From IMG/VR virus record IMGVR_UViG_3300031950_000001, positions 32,001-96,000 of that record: a stretch of DNA of 64,000 bases; one strand, given 5' to 3'. The translations under genes and the position numbers were made by a program. This DNA is from a virus. The notes below the pieces were generated by a model. That model was not told the DNA's origin. It searched no databases and saw only the letters and a program-made list of their open reading frames with translations. Of the stretch, positions 1 to 56,736 are shown piece after piece; position 1 is the first letter of the stretch; the number at the start of each line of letters is the position of its first letter.

Positions 1-304
1 CTCAAGACTGAGAAAGTTGAAGCGTTTGAACCGTGAGTTATCCCGCCGACAAGAGAGTAGAGGAAGAAGTTGGCGACGCTACATCGTCGGATATTTGAAT
101 ACCGCTAGAAGCATTGAGCGGGAAGCATTACGTTTAATCGACAGATGCCGGAGTGGGTTCACGGACTCTCTAAACGGGCGTGGACGGGAAGGCTCTGGCT
201 ATCGGGAAACCGATAGTGAAACCGGCCCGAATAAAGCGCCAAAATTGGCCGAAGAAAGGCGGCCTTCCAGACCTGCCGTTGTTTAGGCAGGTTTGGTAAA
301 CCAG
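1..304 (+). mobile_element. Non-autonomous IS607 derivative (deleted tnpB remnant plus right end/omegaRNA), cut by the window start
   Basis: Matches pieces of the tnpB at 52778-54043 and ends in the same right end GGCAGGTTTGGTAAACCAG. It has the internal deletion junction CGGATA|TTTGAA. Confidence 0.9.
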
Positions 305-311
305 GTGTAAC

Positions 312-572
312 ATGCTGATCGCAGACTTTCGTACCGGTAAAATGACCAAACTGGCCATTGATTGGAAGGGTCTTTTCTCTGTTCTAATGTCGGGCGCGGT
401 AGGTGGAATTGGCGGACTCGGCGCTGGCGGTCTTATTGACCTACTCCGTGGAGACGGAACGCAGGACTATACCAAAACGCTCGGACTAATCGGTCTGATT
501 AGCGGTCTTGGTTATGGCGGCGCCAGAAAGCTGCTTGAGTATTTATTTAGTGATCATAAGGAGGAAAAATAA
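312..572 (+). CDS. Leader-family A protein (short; leader plus glycine-zipper hairpin)
   Basis: Starts MLIADFRTGKMTKLA, followed by two GxxxG-rich hydrophobic helices. Confidence 0.85.
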   Translation: MLIADFRTGKMTKLAIDWKGLFSVLMSGAVGGIGGLGAGGLIDLLRGDGTQDYTKTLGLIGLISGLGYGGARKLLEYLFSDHKEEK

Positions 573-575
573 GGG

Positions 576-830
576 GTGTTGATATTCGACTTTCGTACCG
601 GCAAAATGACTAAGAGGGCGTTCGACTTTGTCGATTTCGTCGATATTGTCGTGCCTGCGTTGAAAGGAGGCATATATGGGCTTATTGGACTAGTGCTTGG
701 CGATATTATCGATCAGCACATTGGTACCAGAAATCGATGGGCCACGATTCTTGGTCTTACGGGCTTGATCGCAGGTTTGGGCATTGGAGGGTACAGCCGC
801 TACTTAGCTCGGCGACACTTAGAGCAATGA
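576..830 (+). CDS. Leader-family A protein (short)
   Basis: Starts MLIFDFRTGKMTKRA, followed by GxxxG helices and the RWATILGLTGL motif. Confidence 0.85.
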   Translation: MLIFDFRTGKMTKRAFDFVDFVDIVVPALKGGIYGLIGLVLGDIIDQHIGTRNRWATILGLTGLIAGLGIGGYSRYLARRHLEQ

Positions 831-910
831 CGTTCAGACTGGACGGTAGTGCTTAGCTGTGAAGAGCGTAGGTTACTAGATGGCTAAGCTCTTTCCGAGA
901 TTCGAAAAAA

Positions 911-2242
911 ATGTTAATACTCGACTTTCGTACTGGCAAAATGACTAAAATAGCGCTAGACTTTAGCGACGCAGCTTCCGCACTGATATCGGCCGGATTA
1001 CTCGGTCTCGGCGGGGCCGGCCTTGGCTATCTCATTGACATGCGAGCCGGGACCGGAAAGCGATGGACTAAGATTCTTGGCTTGTTAGGCCTGCTGGGCG
1101 GGCTTGGGCTCGGTGCGTACGGCCGATATTTGTATAAAACGGACCAAACATCTCCCAATCAGGACGGTATGGCGGCTAGTCCTCTAGCGGTATCTGGCAG
1201 CACGTCCGATACAGCGCCCGAAGAACAGGCTCGCCGCTTGCCAGCCGACGGTTCGCCACTATCAATCGCACCTACCTCTGACAAGGTACAATCTGACGCC
1301 CCATCGGCTAAAACGCGGCCGACACGCCCGTCTAGCGGCTCATCCGACGCGCCACGAACTTCTTCAGGATCGTCGCGTAGTCCGTCCAACCAGCAACAGC
1401 CCTCTGTTTCTATAAGCTCGTCTGCCGGTTCAGCTGGCACGAAACTGCCTCCTAGCCCGCCAGCTGTACAGCATCCTCAAGGGCTGCATAGCGAGTCATC
1501 CAATAGAGCACAATCTCCGTCAGCGTCGTCTGGTCAGGCATCCGGCACGCCACAAACTTCTTCAAAATCAGCGCCCGGTTCATCTGGTACGGCACAATCT
1601 TCGTTAGGGTCATCCGGTCGCCCATCTGCTGCGCCGCCAACTTCTCCAGGATCATCGAGTGGTCCGTCCGACCAGAAACAGACTTCCGGTTCTACAGGAT
1701 CGTCTGCCGGGTCATCTGGTACGAAACCGTCCTCTACAGGGATCAGGCTTTCCGATGACCTCGCACAGAGGTTAGTAGAAAGAGTAAAGACGTTCCTTAA
1801 AGATACGCGGGGATCGCCTGACGATACGGATAGATATAAGGATCTTGATCAAGCACCTAACGAGATGTGCGTTCGACTTGTGCACACGGGAGTCCAAGGC
1901 GGTCAGGGCGTCTATCAGCCGGATGCCCGAGCCTATCGGGCAGCCGCAGAATTTGCTCGCGGCGACGAACAAAAACAGAGAGCAATTCGTCTCGCGAAGC
2001 GTTTCAGTGCACGGATCCATCTGCTTTTATTGCTCCAGCCCAAGCTTGCGCCTGATATGGCACAAGACATAACTCAGCGTATTAACGATGCTCTAACGGT
2101 GTTGCTAACGTTAAAGCCCGACGCATCAAACGCAGACGAGATCGATAAGTATTTTGCAGACAGGCTGCGCGGTTTGTTTAGTAATGATATTATTAATAAG
2201 GCGCTAACCGATCCCTTTTCGATTTCGCCTGAACCACGTTAA
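911..2242 (+). CDS. Leader-family A protein with long Ser/Pro/Gly linker and helical C-domain
   Basis: Starts MLILDFRTGKMTKIA, then glycine zipper and an approximately 200-aa low-complexity linker. Confidence 0.85.
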   Translation: MLILDFRTGKMTKIALDFSDAASALISAGLLGLGGAGLGYLIDMRAGTGKRWTKILGLLGLLGGLGLGAYGRYLYKTDQTSPNQDGMAASPLAVSGSTSDTAPEEQARRLPADGSPLSIAPTSDKVQSDAPSAKTRPTRPSSGSSDAPRTSSGSSRSPSNQQQPSVSISSSAGSAGTKLPPSPPAVQHPQGLHSESSNRAQSPSASSGQASGTPQTSSKSAPGSSGTAQSSLGSSGRPSAAPPTSPGSSSGPSDQKQTSGSTGSSAGSSGTKPSSTGIRLSDDLAQRLVERVKTFLKDTRGSPDDTDRYKDLDQAPNEMCVRLVHTGVQGGQGVYQPDARAYRAAAEFARGDEQKQRAIRLAKRFSARIHLLLLLQPKLAPDMAQDITQRINDALTVLLTLKPDASNADEIDKYFADRLRGLFSNDIINKALTDPFSISPEPR

Positions 2243-2267
2243 ACGAAGTCGAAAGCTGTTTTCAAAT

Positions 2268-2457
2268 TTTATCTTCGTCAGTCCCTGATAGCACTGTACG
2301 GTCCAGAACGAAACTTACCGAACGAAGAAGCGGCTGAAAGGGAATTTCAACCAGTGATAGAGTTGTTTAAGCAGACTAACATCGGAGAGATTCAGAGGGC
2401 GCTAGAAAATCCATTTTCCCTTTTAACTGAATCACCCTAGAAAAGGGGGTAATTATC
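2268..2457 (+). repeat. Intergenic direct repeat R1, copy 1 (coding remnant plus RBS region)
   Basis: Near-identical to 3323-3510 and partly to 4603-4696. Confidence 0.85.
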
Positions 2458-3285
2458 ATGCGAATCCTTGACTTTCGCGCTGGCAAAATGACGAAACGGG
2501 GGTTAGACCTTGGTGATGTTGGTGATGTTCTTTCCGTGGTAGGACCGGGAGCATTGTTTGGTATCGGTGGTGCAGGGCTTGGTAGTATCATTGATATGCT
2601 AGCCGGCACTAAACGTCGATGGACCACGATTCTTGGCCTGACAGGATTGGCTGGAGGCGTTGGGCTTGGAAGTACAGGTCTATTTAAGTCCTGGTTCGCA
2701 GCAGAACGAGGGCCTGAGTTCCCCAAGAAACTAAGTGACATCCCAGCTTATGCTAAGATCTTCCGCTATATCGTATTTATGCGAGCAGATCCGAGTGCAT
2801 TCAAAGGCTCTGATCATCCTATATTTCGACGCCTCCCTGAGATGGATGGAGAGCAGCTGTATTGCCATCTTACGCAGCTGGGGATTGCTCCGAACACGCT
2901 TCCGGGGTATAGAGCGAATCCGTATGTCCATAACGTGGCGGCAAACCTAGTTTCTCCTACCGACCCGCGACAGTTTGCAATTCTACATGCGGCGCATTTC
3001 AACCTGGAAGTTGTGCCGTTACAACTGTGCTGGAACGAGCTTGATGCAAACCAGCGCAACCGACTATTTTCGTCTCTCGGTGCGTATAGGGAGAAATTGG
3101 CTTTAAACGCCAACGACCCTACAATCAGCAAGGAAGCCGATAACGAGTTTAATAAACTAGTAAAGCAACTTATAGAGTACGGGAAAAAAGAGCATGCAGA
3201 TGCACTACGAATATTGCACCAGCAGCATCAAATGGACGTCCAAGAATTTGCTCAACAAATTCAGCAAGTTAAGCAACGACCGTAA
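2458..3285 (+). CDS. Leader-family A protein
   Basis: Starts MRILDFRAGKMTKRG, then glycine zipper and a variable C-domain. Confidence 0.85.
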   Translation: MRILDFRAGKMTKRGLDLGDVGDVLSVVGPGALFGIGGAGLGSIIDMLAGTKRRWTTILGLTGLAGGVGLGSTGLFKSWFAAERGPEFPKKLSDIPAYAKIFRYIVFMRADPSAFKGSDHPIFRRLPEMDGEQLYCHLTQLGIAPNTLPGYRANPYVHNVAANLVSPTDPRQFAILHAAHFNLEVVPLQLCWNELDANQRNRLFSSLGAYREKLALNANDPTISKEADNEFNKLVKQLIEYGKKEHADALRILHQQHQMDVQEFAQQIQQVKQRP

Positions 3286-3322
3286 TGACATTAAAGAACC
3301 CTGATTCATTATCACGATTTCT

Positions 3323-3510
3323 TTTATCTTCGTCGGTTCCTGATAGCATTGTACGATCCAGAGCGAAATTCACTGAACGAAACAGCGGCCGAGAAGGAAT
3401 TTCAACCAGTGATAGAGTTGTTTAAGCAGGCTAACATAAGAGAGATTCAGAAGGCGCTAGAAAATCCGCTTTCCCTTTTAACTGAATCACCCTAGAAAAG
3501 GGTAATTATC
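3323..3510 (+). repeat. Intergenic direct repeat R1, copy 2
   Basis: Near-identical to 2268-2457. Confidence 0.85.
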
Positions 3511-4293
3511 ATGCGAATCCTTGACTTTCGTACCGGCAAAATGACGAAACTGGCGTTAGACTTTGGTTATATTCCTGCTATGGCTATACCGGGAGTATTG
3601 TATGGTATCGGTGGTGCAGGGCTAGGTAGTCTCATTGATAGGCTAGCCGGCACTAAACGTCGATGGACCACGATTCTTGGTCTGCTAGGATTGGCCGGAG
3701 GTGCTGGGGCTGGAGGGTTGCTCCGATATCTGGATGAGCGCTCCAATACTCCTGAAGCGCAGATGCGTCGGTTCCTAACGAATGCAACGGCGCCGCCGTC
3801 TGATCAGTTTGTGCAACAGATGAGCGAGACCTTCCCATATATAGTTGAGACTTTCCGAAAGGCCGCTACCGAAAAGAAACCGAGCGATCTGATTCGTGGT
3901 CTTATCTGGCCATTATACGAGGAAGGCGGAATTTGGCTTTATAACCCGAGTGCCAGCGAGTTCCAACTTATCCTCTATTTCGCTTCTAAAACGCGAAACC
4001 ATGAGATGATACTACCTGCAATTGATCTTGCAACGGATATAGCTGCGCAAGGTCGGTTGCTTTCGCGGTATCAGGAATGGATTCCGGAGAATTTACGGCC
4101 AGAGATAGAGAACCACTTTAGGAACTATGTGAATGCGACTATCGACTATGTCGAAGGTAAGACGCCGGATCCGAACGCGCCTAAATTATATCTTGACAAG
4201 TTGGTGAAACTACTCAAGGATACAAATAAAAAAGAGCTTATAGAAATTGCGGATCTGATCAGACAACCACGTAAGGTTCTACAACAACAGTAA
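3511..4293 (+). CDS. Leader-family A protein
   Basis: Starts MRILDFRTGKMTKLA. The C-domain is paralogous to 5155-5922 (GRLLSRYQ..IPE.LRPEIE.HF.NY). Confidence 0.85.
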   Translation: MRILDFRTGKMTKLALDFGYIPAMAIPGVLYGIGGAGLGSLIDRLAGTKRRWTTILGLLGLAGGAGAGGLLRYLDERSNTPEAQMRRFLTNATAPPSDQFVQQMSETFPYIVETFRKAATEKKPSDLIRGLIWPLYEEGGIWLYNPSASEFQLILYFASKTRNHEMILPAIDLATDIAAQGRLLSRYQEWIPENLRPEIENHFRNYVNATIDYVEGKTPDPNAPKLYLDKLVKLLKDTNKKELIEIADLIRQPRKVLQQQ

Positions 4294-4297
4294 ACAA

Positions 4298-4503
4298 GAA
4301 CGGGAATACTGATAACGATCAAAATTTTGATTCCGGAATCAAATTTCGATGATGGTTCCGGAATACGCCAATGGTGCGGGCTGATATAGCCCGTTTTTCG
4401 TGGTCTTGGCCGTGAGAGTATTAGGTCAACCTGATTAAGTTATTCATCTCGGCGCCAAATGCGCACAAATTCATGTTAATACTCGATTTTCGTACCGGCC
4501 GAT
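4298..4503 (+). repeat. Intergenic direct repeat R2, copy 1
   Basis: Near-identical to about 5928-6135. Includes the 18-bp palindrome and the first 10 leader codons. Confidence 0.85.
4326..4343. repeat. Dispersed palindrome TTTGATTCCGGAATCAAA
   Basis: Exact 18-bp palindrome, intergenic. Confidence 0.95.
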
Positions 4504-4607
4504 ATAACAGAATTCAGCCCGAAGGCTACGATCCAGATCCCGTAGACTACCAAGCTGCTAGCCAAGCTGCTATAATAAAATCTGTACCGTCCAAACCGAC
4601 GAAGTGA
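4473..4607 (+). pseudogene. Deleted or chimeric leader-family A remnant
   Basis: MLILDFRTGR is fused directly to GYDPDPVDYQAA (compare GYDPDVLDFQVA in 5155-5922). 44 aa. Confidence 0.7.
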
Positions 4608-4696
4608 TAGAGTTGTTTAAGCAGGCTAACGTCGGAGAGATTCAAAGGGCTATAGAAATCCGTTTTCCCTTTTAACTGAATCACCCTAGAAAGGAG

Positions 4697-5144
4697 GTTA
4701 AAGCTGTTTTCAAATAACTAACTATACCGCTACAAACATACCAATAACACTTGACAAGAGACAAAGATGCGATATACTAATTGGTAAGGATTACCTGCTG
4801 GTCGACAGTGAAATAATCGAGGTTGACCGTCGTTCGGTATAGACACGGGCGTCAAGGCGTTAGCCGTTCTCTCAGATGGAAAGCGGTACGAGAACCAAGT
4901 ACTGCTACGCTCAAGACTGAGAAGTTGTCGACGCTACATCGACGGATATTTGAACGCCGCTCGGAACATTGAGCGGGAAGCGTTACGTTTGATCAACAGA
5001 GGCCGGAGTGGGTTCACGGACTCTCTAAACGGACGTGGACAGGACGTAAGACCCTTCGGGGCAGTCCTGGATGAAACGTCAAAATTGGCTGAAGAAAGGC
5101 AGCCTTCCATTCCTGCCGTGGTTTAGGCAGGTTTGGTAAACCAG
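4697..5144 (+). mobile_element. Complete non-autonomous IS607 derivative (448 bp), inserted at GGAG in the RBS of 5155
   Basis: Left end GTTAAAGCTGTTTTCAAAT and right end ...GGTAAACCAG match the full element. tnpA and most of tnpB are deleted. Confidence 0.92.
4751..4778 (+). promoter_or_regulatory. sigma70-like promoter in the left end of the IS607 derivative
   Basis: TTGACA-16 bp-TATACT. Confidence 0.6.
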
Positions 5145-5154
5145 GGTAACTATC

Positions 5155-5922
5155 ATGTTAATCCTTGACTTTCGCACCGGCAAAATGACGAAACTGGCGT
5201 TAGACTTTGGTGATGTTGCGTCCGTGGCGATACCGGGGGCGTTGTTGGGTCTCGGTGGTGTGGGGCTCGGTAGTCTAATTGATATGCTAGCCGGCACTAA
5301 ACGTCGATGGACCACGATTCTTGGTCTGACAGGACTGGCCGGAGGTGCGGGGCTTGGAGGATTGGGTCGATATCTGTATAAGCGCGATCCTACATATCAG
5401 ACGTTTGTGTTCCTAGATAAGGCATTCACGCCGGCGACTGAGTCGGATGTGCAGAAGAAGTTCGGTAACAACCCAGACGCGATTGCGGCGCACCAAACCC
5501 GAATCAATAACATGACGCCGACCGAACTGATTAATAGTCTTATCGAACCAATGTACAAGGACTTTTGGGGGTATGACCCGGATGTTCTCGATTTCCAAGT
5601 TGCCCGCTATCTCGTTTCTAAACAGGCCGATAACGCGAAATTAACCGCACTTAATATCGCCGTGGATATAGCGGTACGAGGTCGGTTGCTTTCGCGGTAT
5701 CAGAAACGGATTCCGGAGGATTTACGGCCAGAAATAGAGAAACACTTTATGAACTATGCGCGCGAAATGACCAATCAGTTCGCAAGTGCGAATCCAAATT
5801 GGGAAGTGCCTAAATCGCATCTTCAGACGTTGGTAGGGTTACTCGTGGCGACGAATCAAGAAGAGGTCGAAAAACTTGCGAAGCTAGTCGCAAATCCATA
5901 TAGCGTTCGGGATCAATCATAA
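5155..5922 (+). CDS. Leader-family A protein
   Basis: Starts MLILDFRTGKMTKLA, then glycine zipper. Confidence 0.85.
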   Translation: MLILDFRTGKMTKLALDFGDVASVAIPGALLGLGGVGLGSLIDMLAGTKRRWTTILGLTGLAGGAGLGGLGRYLYKRDPTYQTFVFLDKAFTPATESDVQKKFGNNPDAIAAHQTRINNMTPTELINSLIEPMYKDFWGYDPDVLDFQVARYLVSKQADNAKLTALNIAVDIAVRGRLLSRYQKRIPEDLRPEIEKHFMNYAREMTNQFASANPNWEVPKSHLQTLVGLLVATNQEEVEKLAKLVANPYSVRDQS

Positions 5923-5958
5923 AAAAACGAACGGGAATATTGATCGGTATCAAAAAAT

Positions 5959-5976
5959 TTTGATTCCGGAATCAAA
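5959..5976. repeat. Dispersed palindrome TTTGATTCCGGAATCAAA
   Basis: Exact copy, within repeat R2 copy 2. Confidence 0.95.
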
Positions 5977-6105
5977 TTTCGATGATGGTTCCGGAATACG
6001 CCAATGGTGCAGACCGATATAGCCCGTTTTTCGTGGTCTTGGCCGTGAGAGTATTAGGTCAACCTGATTAAGTTATTCATCTCGGCGCCAAATGCGCACA
6101 AATTC

Positions 6106-14340: not shown

Positions 14341-14428
14341 AAAATTTTTGATTCCGGAATCAAAAATTTTTGGTTTATCCCCCTATATAGGGGGTTATCG
14401 CTAAAAATTTGATTCCGGAATCAAATTT
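14341..14428. repeat. Two dispersed palindromes (cores 14347-14364 and 14408-14425) flanking CCCCCTATATAGGGGG (14379-14394)
   Basis: Three palindromes within 90 bp. The first extends to 30 bp perfect. Confidence 0.92.
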
Positions 14429-14491: not shown

Positions 14492-14523
14492 CTGCCGCGG
14501 TTTCGGCAGGTTTGGTAAACCAG
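14492..14523 (+). mobile_element. Isolated IS607 right-end remnant
   Basis: CTGCCGCGGTTTCGGCAGGTTTGGTAAACCAG matches the element terminus, with the hairpin retained. Confidence 0.8.
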
Positions 14524-51629: not shown

Positions 51630-51957
51630 GGAGGGGCGCTACAAAGCCGTTCCGATACGTCGGATCGACTTTCGGGCGCTTTTGTTAGGCCCGATATGGC
51701 TCGTACTCCAACGAGCTTATCTTGAAGCCTTAGCGACATTCCTCTTGCTAATTGGACTGTGGGGCTGTGGACTCCCTCTATTTGTGGCGATTATCGTGGT
51801 GAATATGCTAGTAAGTTACATTAATTTGGTCGTCCTTGATTCCCGGTTGCAGCGATCGGGATGGGACTACATAAGCTCAGTAGAGGCTAAAGATCCGCAT
51901 ACGGCGATAAAGTTGGTTTTGGACCCGTTTTTGTCTTTGAAGAAAGGAGTGAAATGA
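51604..51957 (+). CDS. DUF2628-like membrane protein
   Basis: F.ALLLGPIWL, TM helices and L...GW.....V.A....A pattern. Confidence 0.6.
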   Translation: MAVYRVYCREGRYKAVPIRRIDFRALLLGPIWLVLQRAYLEALATFLLLIGLWGCGLPLFVAIIVVNMLVSYINLVVLDSRLQRSGWDYISSVEAKDPHTAIKLVLDPFLSLKKGVK

Positions 51958-52292
51958 TGTTTGATGACGATCAAGTCCACGATGATTTCGATCAACAGCC
52001 AGAGCAGCCAAGTTATGATGAGTTGTCAAAACACATTGTCTTGCCTTCGAAGGTAGTAGGCGTTTTTGTGGTACCGACTCCAGGAACGTTTAAACTATCG
52101 ATTTTGTGCATCCCCGAAAATGCCAAGCTCGAAGACGTAGGCAAGACGGAGCCCGCGGTACATGTCGTACTTTCGCTGCAGGACGTGGAAGCGCTGCTCC
52201 AGATGCTAAAAGACGGACTCGAAAGAGTCAAACTAGAACAAAAGGCACGATCGGCAGCGAATTATGGCCGTGAGCTGTTCGGACTGAGTTAG
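51954..52292 (+). CDS. Hypothetical protein
   Basis: AAGGAG RBS and an acidic N-terminus. Confidence 0.7.
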   Translation: MMFDDDQVHDDFDQQPEQPSYDELSKHIVLPSKVVGVFVVPTPGTFKLSILCIPENAKLEDVGKTEPAVHVVLSLQDVEALLQMLKDGLERVKLEQKARSAANYGRELFGLS

Positions 52293-52334
52293 CCAGGCCA
52301 AAAAACCCTACTTGTAGGGGGTAGGCTTATAAAA

Positions 52335-52352
52335 TTTGATTCCGGAATCAAA
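52335..52352. repeat. Dispersed palindrome TTTGATTCCGGAATCAAA
   Basis: Exact copy. Confidence 0.95.
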
Positions 52353-52777
52353 TTTTGGCTTGTCCGTTTTGAAAAAATCTGTTAAATTGATTTAACAAAC
52401 CTCCTACCTGCCCGCCCCGCGGAGCACCGCAGAACACAATCCTGCGGGGCGGGCAGGGTTTAATCGTCCGTCCTATAACGAAAGGAGAAGGAGAAATGAA
52501 GTATCGTGCAATTGTGTCGGGTCTAATGGTTCTGTCGGTTTTGGCTGTTTCGTCGCTGCGAGCGGCTGATGTTCCGCCCGATATCGAGAAGAAGCATGTC
52601 CAAATGCTCTATCCAGTCGTCCGCGTGACGGTCAAGAACGCTGGCGGCTCTGGGACAATTCTCTATAGCGAAGATCGTGGAGATGGCTGTCAGACCTACG
52701 TTTTGACGAACTATCACGTTATCGAGGGAGCCATTAATATCGTTACCGAGTGGTCTTCGCTGGTTTACCAAACCTGC

Positions 52778-54043
52778 CTAAACCACGGCAGGTTTGGTAG
52801 GCTGCCTTTCTTCAGCCAATTTTGACGCTTCATCCAGAACTGCCCCGAAGGGTCTTACGTCCTGTCCACGTCCGTTTAGAGAGTCCGTGAACCCACTCCG
52901 GCCTCTGTTGATCAAACGTAACGCTTCCCGCTCAATGTTCCGAGCGGCGTTCAAATCCCTATCAGCGGTATACCCGCACTCACAAACAAACGTTCGGTCA
53001 CTCAGTGCCAAGTCTGATTTGACTACACCACACATTGGGCATAGCCGACTAGAGGGGAAGAAGCGGTCAACTTTTACCAATACGCCGCCGTACCACTCGG
53101 ATTTGTATCGTAACTGTCGTACAATCTCGCCAAGCCCAGCATCGGAGATTAGCAGGGCCATGCGGTGGTTACGCAGCATTCCGGCGACATTCAAATCTTC
53201 CACGCCGATAATCCGATAGGTGCGGGCGATCTCGGTCGTCATCTTGTGCAGATAATCCAACCGCTTGTTGGCTATCCGACGATGTAGCGTCGCCAACTTC
53301 TTCTTGGTGCGGTTCCAGCGACCGCTTCCCTCTTGTCGGCGGGATAGTTCGCGGCTCAGACGCTTTAACTTTCTCAGTCTTGAGCGTAGCAGCACTTGGT
53401 TCTCGTACCGCTTGCCATCTGAGAGAACAGCCAAAGTCCTGACGCCCACGTCTATCCCGACTGCCCCTTGTGGGTGCTTGTGTTCTGGTGGTTCGATTTC
53501 TACATTGACAGCAGCATACCAATGCCCTGCGTTCTCCGAAATAGTAACTGACTTGATTTCACCGTTAAACCTCAACACCTCGGCCATATTGATTGGTTTA
53601 TCTAACTTTTCCAACTTGAGCCAATGGCCGTCAATACGAACCCGTGTCCCGTCCATTCTGAAGGATAATTTGGATCGTTTCTTGGACTTGAACCTGGGAT
53701 AGCCCTTCTTAGTATCGCCATTCTTGCACCGGCGAAAGAACCTCGTGAATGCGTCATCAAGATTCCGAAAGCCAGTTTCTACAGCGCATTTAGAAACGTC
53801 CAGGGCCCAGGGGAACTGCTTGCGCTTGATGGCGTTGAATTGCCTTTTCAAGGTATAAGCTGATGGTTTCCTGCCAGCGGCATATTCTTTCTGCCACTCG
53901 GCCAAACCCCAATTGAAGGCAAATCTTGCCGTTCCGCAAGCCTTGCGCAGGTACTCGGTCTGTTGAGGCGTGGGATTAAGTCTGATTTTATGTGCTCGCT
54001 GCATCGGAGCTTTCCTTCTGCCTGCGCCCGCCTCGTGCTCCAT
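52778..54043 (-). CDS. tnpB: TnpB RNA-guided nuclease
   Basis: N-terminal HTH_OrfB-like region, RuvC D (GIDVG), E (VEDL) and D (DRDLNAA), and Zn finger CPMC...CECG. True start probably MQRAHK. Confidence 0.95.
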   Translation of the reverse strand: MEHEAGAGRRKAPMQRAHKIRLNPTPQQTEYLRKACGTARFAFNWGLAEWQKEYAAGRKPSAYTLKRQFNAIKRKQFPWALDVSKCAVETGFRNLDDAFTRFFRRCKNGDTKKGYPRFKSKKRSKLSFRMDGTRVRIDGHWLKLEKLDKPINMAEVLRFNGEIKSVTISENAGHWYAAVNVEIEPPEHKHPQGAVGIDVGVRTLAVLSDGKRYENQVLLRSRLRKLKRLSRELSRRQEGSGRWNRTKKKLATLHRRIANKRLDYLHKMTTEIARTYRIIGVEDLNVAGMLRNHRMALLISDAGLGEIVRQLRYKSEWYGGVLVKVDRFFPSSRLCPMCGVVKSDLALSDRTFVCECGYTADRDLNAARNIEREALRLINRGRSGFTDSLNGRGQDVRPFGAVLDEASKLAEERQPTKPAVV

Positions 54044-54599
54044 ATAACCGAGACGAAAAACTTACAATGATCGTCAGAATATCCTCAATCAACTCTTCGT
54101 GCTCGTTCTTCTCTTCCGCTTCTTCCAGAACTTCTACTCTGCAACCTACGCCATTGAAGAATCGCTCAATGGTTCGGAAACCAAAGCGGGTCAATCTATC
54201 TCGATGTTCAACTACAACCTTTTTGATTTTACCTTTGCAAGCCGCGTCTATGATCTTGAAGAACTGGCGGCGATTGTCGTTTAGACCAGAAGCAATCTCG
54301 GAACAGTCTAACACAATGCGATAACCGCGCTCCCTACAGGCTTCTATCAGCCTTTCATGCTGGCGGGTAAGATTCTCTACTTGCTTTTGTGTAGATACAC
54401 GAGCATACAAGGCTACGTCCTTCTCGGTTACAGTAACACCATCCGATATAGACAGGAGCTTTTCAATCTCGGCACTATCATAGCGACGATGCCCGCCAGC
54501 AGTACGGTGTTCAGTCAGCTTTCCATCCCTGAGCCACCGATGCAAGGTGGTCTTGGAGAGCCGATACTTCTGCTCGACTTCCGATTGCCTCAACAACAT
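53988..54599 (-). CDS. tnpA: IS607 TnpA serine recombinase
   Basis: MerR-like HTH (TLHRW..DGKL...RT.GGHRRY), YARVST, SGLN..R and DRL.RFG. Confidence 0.95.
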   Translation of the reverse strand: MLLRQSEVEQKYRLSKTTLHRWLRDGKLTEHRTAGGHRRYDSAEIEKLLSISDGVTVTEKDVALYARVSTQKQVENLTRQHERLIEACRERGYRIVLDCSEIASGLNDNRRQFFKIIDAACKGKIKKVVVEHRDRLTRFGFRTIERFFNGVGCRVEVLEEAEEKNEHEELIEDILTIIVSFSSRLYGARGGRRQKESSDAAST

Positions 54600-54720
54600 C
54601 AGCCATTACCTCATTCAGCCAAGTCTCATAGTCCTGTTTGTCCGGTACGGATTCAAATGGCGGGTCAACCTCGATTCTTTCACCGTTGACCAGTACGTAA
54701 TCCTCACCAATTTCATTTAT

Positions 54721-54749
54721 AGTATAGCGCATCTTTGTCTCCTTGTCAA
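54721..54749 (-). promoter_or_regulatory. sigma70-like promoter in the IS607 left end
   Basis: TTGACA-17 bp-TATACT on the minus strand. Confidence 0.7.
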
Positions 54750-55458
54750 GTGTTATTGGTATGTTTGTAGCGGTATAGTCAGTTATTTGAAAACAGCTTT
54801 AACCTCCAGCAAGACGTGAAGCGGGAAGTCAACGACGAAGTCAAGGTTGAAATTTTCCGCTACACGCAAGGAAGTCGTCAAGACTTTAGTGACGCTTGTC
54901 AGGCGGAAATTGTAGCCAATTCGAAAGAAGAGGATTTGGCACTTTTACGCCTTAAGACCTCCCGCAAGATCGATCACGTCGCGAAAATGCTTCCCGAAAA
55001 CGTCAGGGTTTACATTTTCCAGCCGATCTATGCGGTAGGATGCTCGCTGCCGCATCCGCCGATTGCAACAAAGGGCGAGATTAACTATCTCGATGACGTT
55101 ATTGATAAGCGTACTTATTGGATGGGAACGGCCAACATCGTCTTCGGTAATAGCGGTGGCGCCGTCTTTACCGAACATAACGGGGACTATTATTTCATTG
55201 GCGTCCCTAGCCGGGTTGCCGGCAGCTGGACGCAGATCTTCCCTCATATGGGATGGTTCATCCCGATCACGCGAGTTAGAAACTGGGCTAAGGCCGAGCA
55301 TCTTGAGTTTCTGATTGATCCGAAGGTCAAGCCTTCGGATTGCTTTGCCAAGCGCGAGCAATTGCGCAAAGAAGCCGAACTGCGGATTTCGGCACAAAAG
55401 AAAGGCGAGCCAACTCCAGCGCCGAAGCCTTAAAACAATCTGATTAGCATTTCGACTA

Positions 55459-56337: not shown

Positions 56338-56355
56338 TTTGATTCCGGAATCAAA
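56338..56355. repeat. Dispersed palindrome TTTGATTCCGGAATCAAA
   Basis: Exact copy. Left flank ACCGCCTAAAA is shared with the 39009 copy. Confidence 0.95.
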
Positions 56356-56513: not shown

Positions 56514-56736
56514 CCAGAACACAAGCATCCGCATCGGATATTTGAATGCCGCTCGAAACATTGAGCGGGAAGCGCTACTTGTGATCAACAGAGGCCGGAG
56601 TGGGTTCACGGACTCTCTAAACGGACGTGGACAGGACGTAAGACCCTTCGGGGCAGTCCTGGATGAAGCGTCAAAATTGGCCGACGAACGGCGGCCTTCC
56701 ATTCCTGCCGTGGTTTAGGCAGGTTTGGTAAACCAG
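56514..56736 (+). mobile_element. IS607 remnant (tnpB scrap plus right end/omegaRNA)
   Basis: PEHKHP scrap, the CGGATA|TTTGAA junction and an intact 3' region ending GGTAAACCAG. Confidence 0.9.

Follow-up and report, generated by a model that had tools for sequence, protein, structure and literature searches.

Which sequence does the insertion sequence found in this stretch of viral DNA use as its target, and how is that choice connected with the fact that so many of its copies lie directly behind a ribosome-binding site, ahead of the start codon? The window, by which we mean the whole analyzed stretch of 64,000 nucleotides, corresponds to positions 32001-96000 of the 144,055-bp contig IMGVR_UViG_3300031950_000001; the whole 144-kb genome, which belongs to an uncultured hot-spring phage of roughly 142 kb (origin according to the sequencing-run metadata), was also examined. 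When the full element was compared with the genome by BLAST, six independent IS607-family copies were found, one of them full-length (E) and five of them deletion derivatives (A, B, C, D and F). We are confident that these copies represent one IS607-family lineage that inserts 3' of the target sequence GGAG, the core of a Shine-Dalgarno (SD) sequence, with guide-RNA and homing steps that would follow established TnpA/TnpB biology.

One autonomous copy and five derivatives

The six copies are the following, in window coordinates unless stated otherwise.

52760-54803, minus strand: copy E, autonomous IS607-family element of 2,044 bp, antisense inside a secreted trypsin-like protease gene, whose open reading frame (ORF) is restored by excision
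4697-5144, plus strand: copy C, non-autonomous mini element of 448 bp, composed of a left end of about 135 bp, tnpB fragments (4834-4923 and 4920-4948) and a 197-bp right-end block
Genome 1619-2066, outside the window: copy A, second 448-bp mini element, splitting a glycosyltransferase ORF
Genome 31897 to window 304 (window 1-304, starting 103 bp before the window), plus strand: copy B, remnant without left end, with a divergent RNA scaffold
14492-14523, plus strand: copy D, 32-nt right-end stub consisting of the terminal hairpin only, without RNA scaffold
56540-56736, plus strand: copy F, remnant without left end, scaffold complete, one compensatory pair change relative to E

A left end at the end of the contig is copy A again, because the contig ends in an exact 1,741-bp terminal direct repeat. 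This repeat (genome 1-1741 and 142315-144055) stops 127 bp inside the mini element, and the "direct terminal repeat" of the contig may be an assembly overlap halted at a repeat rather than a physical genome end.

The genes and promoter-like sites of the element are listed below.

53988-54599, minus strand: tnpA, serine recombinase of 203 aa with an N-terminal MerR-type helix-turn-helix (HTH; Pfam Resolvase and HTH_17/MerR)
52778-54043, minus strand: tnpB, ORF of 421 codons (Pfam OrfB_IS605, Cas12f1-like_TNB and HTH_OrfB)
54721-54749, minus strand: sigma-70-like left-end promoter-like site TTGACA-N17-TATACT upstream of tnpA in E, 11/12 matches
4751-4778, plus strand: promoter-like site TTGACA-N16-TATACT kept in mini C, 11/12 matches

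TnpA scored 183.8 bits against the NCBIfam IS607 family transposase equivalog (transpos_IS607; cut-off 110) and TnpB 323 bits against guided_TnpB (cut-off 100). Judged by homology and an upstream AGGAAA, translation of tnpB probably starts at Met14 (about 54004), giving a product of 408 aa. The closest natural solved structure is that of ISDra2 TnpB (8h1j/8exa), which aligned over the whole length with an E value of about 1e-79, whereas the match to the ISFba1-type structure 8iaz was much weaker (E 4e-46). The motifs GIDVG, IGVED and DRDLN align to the catalytic residues D191, E278 and D361 of ISDra2, and the conserved RuvC D-E-D triad together with the zinc-ribbon TNB domain suggests that the enzyme is catalytically intact. 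It is encoded by the only tnpB in the whole genome, which agrees with the single intact TnpB of the original prediction. The promoter motif is found at the same position in most full-length relatives and appears to be the element's own tnpA promoter.

All derivatives (the 448-bp lineage, B and F) carry the same internal deletion (IS positions 1536-1851) and therefore descend from deleted ancestors and not directly from E. Between copies A and C none of the 448 bases differs, but their flanks are unrelated; their right-end block is 97.5% identical to that of copy E, their left end only 88%. Copy B, a divergent sub-lineage with an enlarged hairpin, starts inside the tnpB homology and stops 7 nt short of the gene 312 ATG, and its site is also occupied in the related contig L091. 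A left end for copy B was found nowhere in the whole genome, and the earlier proposal that removal of this copy would restore GGAG-GTGTAAC-ATG for gene 312 thus lacks its left junction. The near-identical contigs L028, L057 and L113 contain copy F as well.

The target sequence and the boundary of the element

Two left junctions fall within the window (the slash marks the proposed boundary between flank and element throughout).

4693-4696, plus strand: GGAG of the split SD (AAAGGAG/G) of gene 5155, junction of copy C
54804-54807, minus strand: GGAG motif at the left end of copy E, resembling a target or a transposon-associated motif (TAM); its plus strand encodes Leu-Gln of the protease

Both of them read GGAG/GTTAAAGCTGTTTTC, at 4693-4696/4697 (plus) and 54807-54804/54803 (minus), as had been reported (GGAG/GTTAAAG), and a third independent left junction, ..TTAATGGAG/GTTAAAG, was found at copy A outside the window. 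At the opposite terminus, a right-end 19-mer (GGCAGG...AAACCAG) occurs five times in the window without any mismatch, ending at 304, 5144, 14523 and 56736 (plus) and at 52760 (minus), while shuffled sequences are expected to contain 0.01 occurrences; the five right ends finishing in AAACCAG that had been reported are therefore all present.

The sequences obtained upon excision indicate where the target stops and the element starts. Removal of 4697-5144 yields TAGAAAGGAGGGTAACTATCATG, a leader of 23 nt that has the same length as the leader before 2458 and differs from it by 3 substitutions, as in the paralog alignment described originally. At site E, excision of 52760-54803 with GGAG kept in the flank results in a 332-codon plus-strand ORF that encodes a signal peptide and a trypsin-like domain (gene halves at 51789-52759 and 54804-55433, plus strand). 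The protease gene is intact in a related 135-kb phage contig (L152), with a C-terminal part that is 82% identical, and the Leu-Gln encoded by the complement of GGAG aligns to the L152 protease, apart from one extra Leu codon in L152. At site A, excision of genome positions 1619-2066 produces a 376-codon ORF, one half of which matches the N-terminal and the other the C-terminal part of GT-A-type glycosyltransferases. These halves lie at genome 1049-1618 and 2067-2624 (L153), and the right end of the element provides an in-frame TTG (TTG GTA AAC CAG) before the downstream half. Because excision that leaves GGAG behind restores the protease ORF, the glycosyltransferase ORF and a paralog-like leader, GGAG is the target sequence, and the following 7 nt (GTTAAAG) belong to the element. 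The same 7 nt were also considered as part of the target, with the inner boundary at CAGTT/CTGTT, and this was rejected: the heptamer is common to three unrelated sites, and leaving it in place frameshifts both restored ORFs.

The opposite assignment, in which GGAG would be the terminal tetranucleotide of the element and not a target motif, has to be weighed since GGAGGTTAAAG is common to all three copies and identity alone does not place the boundary. It is nevertheless extremely improbable and already effectively refuted, as dropping GGAG together with the element frameshifts both restored ORFs, as the protease CTCC(AG) gives the Leu-Gln that was aligned to the intact homologue, and as in contig L089 the right end meets a left end in a tandem- or circle-type junction (CCAG/GATAAAACAGTT) without GGAG. 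This adjoining of the two ends, at L089:1238-1285 (CCAG/GATAAAACAGTTACC), represents either a tandem insertion or an assembled circle junction.

With GGAG assigned to the target, the flanks of A, C and E share nothing past an AG core, so a target duplication is not seen, and no inverted pair joining both termini was found in 52760-54803. Subterminal repeats common to both ends, which would be candidates for TnpA binding sites, were sought and nothing convincing was found. For site C, contig L091 represents an empty allele, which is 94% identical over the 89 nt upstream of the site and runs straight on into the gene; the empty site reads CGAAG-A and not AGGAG-G. Site A has no such allele for comparison, the related phage G006 being without a glycosyltransferase near the matching region. 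Likewise, the exact predicted empty sites of the three two-ended copies had no match in the viral contigs, which is uninformative, as close relatives differ there.

Insertion sites across the family

A search with the right-end 19-mer retrieved 24 viral, 102 metagenomic and 13 metagenome-assembled genome (MAG) loci, the latter labeled as Chloroflexia, Armatimonadota, Actinomycetota, Bacillota, Acidobacteriota and others. Matches to the element DNA were absent from GenBank phage records, and large viral contigs with the same right end (L022, L027, L006, L018 and L017) have only the element in common and not the flanks. An exact 18-mer of the left end gave only chance matches in the viral contigs, the left end being too variable for exact scans, and the 48 distinct left junctions were anchored on the conserved left-end core. 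GGAG was located at the expected offset in 43 of these 48, with a flank consensus of AAAGGAG/G and a logo that extends to AAAGGAGG, and hence the GGAG left flank predicted from this phage holds family-wide. At the right junction, 75 of 90 distinct flanks begin with G.

The two junctions share AG in 100% of the copies in this phage and AGG in most of the family, with GGA-GG on the left (43/48) and CCA-G followed by G on the right (75/90). Because most junctions share AGG, an AG core is indistinguishable from the canonical GG core of IS607 (PMC6188088), and both seem to fit the junctions alike.

An ATG, GTG or TTG was present at +4 to +13 of the right flank in 51 of 90 distinct flanks and in 49 of 88 site clusters, with a mode at +5 to +8; a gene start was counted when such a codon opened a co-oriented ORF of at least 60 codons. 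Control positions in the same loci were followed by a gene start at 16% of GGAG, 30% of AGGAGG and 10% of random positions, and the observed 56% represents a significant excess over both motifs (Fisher p = 4e-17 vs GGAG and 3e-6 vs AGGAGG). Shine-Dalgarno sequences are the preferred location of the family, and the element has the same orientation as the gene that follows. The insertion puts CCAGG in place of GGAGG before this gene, and among 22 two-ended copies near an SD the predicted anti-SD pairing, on average -11.1 kcal/mol before and -4.5 kcal/mol after insertion, was weaker in 22/22, consistent with the weakening of the SD that had been anticipated. For gene 5155 the predicted value changes from -12.1 to -3.9 kcal/mol, while that of the natural leader of its paralog 3511 is -4.5 kcal/mol.

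Of the three two-ended copies of this phage, C alone lies in an SD and A and E split genes; copy B is probably also in an SD. The claim that insertions hit ribosome-binding sites is thus sustained for the family (56% of 88 sites vs 16%) and holds for the phage itself only in part. Two causes probably contribute to the excess, namely that the target motif is the SD core and that insertions between SD and ATG are tolerated better than those in coding sequence. We see about an even chance that the bias is pure survivorship, i.e. that TnpA needs only GGAG(G), coding insertions are purged and extended target recognition does not take place. Two of the three two-ended copies lie inside ORFs at GGAG, in both orientations, which argues that SD context is not required, and non-SD sites in relatives also have plain GGAG. 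On the other hand, the enrichment persists when the full AGGAGG is taken as control, and the left-flank logo reaches AAAGGAGG; both of these would also be expected from selection for real SDs, and survivorship and target recognition are inseparable from sequence alone.

Two further observations concern the distribution of the family. The same site, AAGGAG/GCGCGATGAAGC, is occupied in related phage contigs (L006/L022/L128, L015 and L009/L017) by two left-end subfamilies with three terminal heptamers, which suggests that a single ribosome-binding site was entered, or its element replaced, more than once. Moreover, the MAG "Chloroflexia bacterium PO_10" has the right-end 19-mer on five contigs (L138, L140, L141, L142 and L144). 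It may represent a lineage that hosts the family or serves as its reservoir, unless these contigs are phage DNA binned with the MAG.

Right-end RNA and predicted guides

The following parts of E and C are relevant to a possible guide RNA.

52760-52905, minus strand: right-end structured RNA of E, about 145 nt, putative omegaRNA scaffold overlapping the 3' end of tnpB
4948-5144, plus strand: right-end block of mini C, with the full RNA scaffold at about 5000-5144
52740-52759, minus strand: predicted 20-nt guide of E (right flank) according to the TnpB model; its sole genomic match is its own flank
5145-5164, plus strand: predicted guide of mini C according to the same model, covering the spacer and start codon (ATG at 5155) of the downstream gene

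Forty copies, taken from this phage and public contigs, were aligned over their last 200 nt, and RNAalifold predicted a consensus of 31 pairs in seven helices, 16 pairs of which have compensatory changes. Pairing was retained in 97.7% of cells, compared with 84% in shuffles and about 35% when partners were slid, and the observed covariation was reached by 0 of 500 shuffles. The structured part comprises approximately the last 145 nt and stops exactly at the element boundary, an architecture that looks to be that of an ISDra2-like omegaRNA. Rfam returned no family in the window at the gathering threshold, and for the right end at E <= 10 no match to RAGATH-18 or any other TnpB guide was obtained, the only hit being a weak Moco-II on the opposite strand (E 0.4).

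Relative to E, the mini scaffold has changes only at unpaired positions or as G-U/G-C and U-G/U-A switches (two paired positions, pairing kept), and copy F has a compensatory change from U-A to C-G. The 448-bp copy accordingly keeps both parts that it had been said to keep, the promoter (11/12) and the whole 3' RNA region with its covarying scaffold. The more general notion that the right-end copies are RNA-bearing mini-cassettes fits C, B and F, which have a scaffold, and fails for the copy ending at 14523, a 32-nt stub without one.

For the 20-nt right flanks, all other genomic matches have at least 3 mismatches within the first 16 nt; the nearest other matches to the guide of C have 3 mismatches and are without GGAG. 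When a copy lies in an SD, its predicted guide necessarily spans the spacer and start codon of the downstream gene. At occupied sites the TAM position reads CCAG in place of GGAG, as would be expected for self-avoidance in the homing model.

RNA data were available, at the contig level only, from three hot-spring metatranscriptome runs that contain parts of the stretch. Contigs with the right-end block of related copies (12-18 differences) reached a depth of 189 and 77 in two studies, while the left-end part and neighboring phage genes had a depth of 2-6 in the same metatranscriptome contigs, and low-depth contigs join a mini of the L077 type to its own flanks. Stretches of the region 4000-6000 were uncovered and none of the contigs spanned the mini of this phage with its own flanks, which is uninformative either way. 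These depths are compatible with an abundant right-end RNA and are to be taken as a hint only.

Mini elements

The survey comprises distinct elements of 105 to 2,044 bp. Twenty of them are shorter than 700 bp, and among these twenty, 15 keep the scaffold motif, 6 a strict promoter motif and 5 both. The 448-bp lineage is found at no fewer than four sites, i.e. at A and C, in contig L077 (97.8% identical over 454 nt, at a different site) and in L091, where a left end has the same terminal motif. Because two identical copies with both ends and without genes occupy unrelated sites, the mini must have moved recently and in trans, and the 448-bp lineage seems to be an active non-autonomous one.

It is unlikely, though worth considering, that minis and remnants are inert debris, neither mobilized nor a source of guides, and that their conserved scaffold reflects youth. 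Copies B, D and F, being without a left end, cannot transpose, promoter and scaffold motifs are both kept in only 5 of the 20 distinct minis, and the RNA evidence comes from related copies and none from the phage's own. However, the identical 448-bp copies at two unrelated loci and the two further sites of the lineage (L077 and L091) speak against debris, as does the retention of the scaffold in 15/20 minis, although about 60 bp of right end is sufficient for TnpA in the Clostridium botulinum (Cbo) system (10.1101/2023.11.20.567912). Moreover, the base changes in C and F either leave the RNA structure unaffected or are compensatory, and right-end RNA is over-represented in two metatranscriptome libraries.

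Even less probable is that mini C is a domesticated regulatory cassette, kept because its sigma-70-like promoter drives the cargo gene 5155. The near-consensus promoter is indeed co-oriented with this gene, which would otherwise be insulated by a terminator-like hairpin upstream (4376-4394). Yet the identical mini at genome 1619-2066 splits the glycosyltransferase ORF, the promoter belongs to tnpA of the element itself and is conserved across the family, the insertion weakens the SD of 5155, and the site is empty in L091.

Proposed transposition cycle and relation to known systems

In the cycle that we propose, TnpA would exchange strands at a dinucleotide within the AGG of GGAGG (compare PMC6188088; 10.1101/2023.11.20.567912; PMC11061315). 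The right-end RNA would serve as omegaRNA with 16-20 nt of the right flank as its guide, following established TnpA/TnpB biology, and with a GGAG-type TAM would direct the single TnpB to the empty allele. The outcome could be restorative homing, or drive against co-infecting phages without the insert, and each scaffold-intact copy (the minis, B and F) could supply a guide. These steps have precedents. An AGGAG or GAGGG TAM was measured for 23 IS607 TnpBs, which also have AG-rich motifs beside their left ends (Ren, 2024; PMC11061315); in the same study 5'-AGGAG was the TAM in 18 of 22 strains. In the Cbo IS607 IStron the TnpA target equals the TnpB TAM, mismatched cores are tolerated, minis are mobilized in trans and restorative homing takes place (10.1101/2023.11.20.567912).

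Several points weigh against this interpretation. The TnpB is nearer to ISDra2, with its TTGAT TAM, than to the AGGAG-recognizing ISFba1 type, and the RNA is not RAGATH-18, so that the published TAM is not simply transferable; RNA-guided cleavage, TAM and RNA binding of this TnpB clade are extrapolated from homology. Two of the three two-ended copies of this phage are in coding sequence, which makes SD placement a tendency and not a rule. The mini left end, at only 88% identity to E, does not establish mobilization by this particular TnpA. Finally, the RNA contigs are from related copies, not demonstrably the minis of this phage, and carry-over of DNA is possible.

The closest comparison with regard to the target is the ISFba1-type IS607 (PMC11061315; PDB 8iaz), which has the same IS607 context, an AG-rich left flank and a TAM that matches AAAGGAG/G. 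Unlike in the ISFba1 type, the TnpB is far nearer to ISDra2 (E 1e-79 vs 4e-46), and the scaffold overlaps the 3' end of tnpB rather than lying downstream and has no RAGATH-18 or Rfam match. With the C. botulinum IS607 IStron (Zedaveinyte et al., 10.1101/2023.11.20.567912), which is excised without a scar via a circle, the lineage shares a serine TnpA, TnpB and gene-less minis; it differs in having no group I intron and a GGAG(G) rather than a TGGG motif. As in Helicobacter pylori IS607 and IS1535 (Chen et al., 2018; PMC6188088), TnpA has an N-terminal HTH and a serine catalytic domain at its C terminus, inverted repeats are lacking, the target is not duplicated, and strand exchange would take place at a G-containing dinucleotide. 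In contrast to the canonical GG target without further specificity of these elements, the target of the present lineage comprises 4-5 nt, GGAG(G), its right end always finishes in CCAG, and the next base is not G at 17% of sites. Like the ISDra2 (IS200/IS605) TnpB-omegaRNA (8h1j, 8exa), the system combines a protein of about 408 aa, a scaffold across the 3' end of tnpB and a predicted guide from the right flank, whereas ISDra2 moves as single-stranded DNA by peel-and-paste, relies on a Y1 HUH transposase and has TTGAT as its TAM. Finally, the minis resemble the palindrome-associated transposable elements (PATEs) of IS200/IS605 and the mini-IS of IS607, in which the ends are kept and genes lost, mobilization is in trans and the scaffold is often kept, with the difference that the 448-bp lineage also retains the element promoter.

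Hence the lineage shows known IS607/TnpB-type behavior, well documented here, and is no new kind of system. What is particular is the combination of an ISDra2-like TnpB and a non-RAGATH scaffold with a GGAG target, recent mini mobilization seen within one genome, and a quantified gene-start excess. The word "ribosome" is absent from PMC11061315, and in the IS607 literature retrieved with Shine-Dalgarno or ribosome-binding-site terms, as far as its texts were accessible, no description of ribosome-binding-site targeting was found. A recombinase target and nuclease TAM that coincide with the SD core would place the element directly after the ribosome-binding site of phage or bacterial genes, ahead of their start codons, and the guide RNA would then cover the start codon of the displaced gene. 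The 88 independent sites, the three restored empty sites and the identical mini pair form a natural data set, and the extension of a GGAG-type target to an ISDra2-like TnpB lineage could interest those who mine compact nucleases with new TAMs.

Copies of the right flank at the left end

Between GGAG and the left-end core lie 6-9 nt that vary among lineages and are stable across transposition; in A, C, E, L077 and L091 they are GTTAAAG. Five of 39 two-ended copies repeat, directly after GGAG, the hexamer with which their own right flank begins (GACATG, GAAAAA, GATCTG, GTGAAG and GCGCGA; copies in L044, L059/L007, L084, L118 and L128/L006), a count reached by 0 of 5,000 permutations (p < 2e-4). 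Target-site duplications are not expected from a serine recombinase. Because the right flank keeps the natural SD-to-ATG spacing, the direction of copying must be from the flank to the left end, and the overwriting hexamer is the seed of the copy's own predicted guide. A tentative and rather doubtful explanation is that the hexamer is a templated footprint left at ribosome-binding sites in nature, either by RNA-guided homing or by shifted recombination. It could arise by imperfect repair of an empty site cut by TnpB, or by a TnpA crossover in a shifted register after which the element re-entered its old site. If true, a TAM and a seed match would be placed at the element's own left junction.

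Sequences near the copies

The invariant palindrome TTTGATTCCGGAATCAAA occurs in 16 copies in the window (4326-4343, 14347-14364, 14408-14425, 56338-56355 and 12 more), and remnants D and F as well as the region upstream of mini C are each located just downstream of one of these copies. Just upstream of the insertion site of mini C, a short ORF of about 45 codons at 4470-4606 has the family leader MLILDFRTG at its start and resembles a cargo-family paralog that has been cut short.

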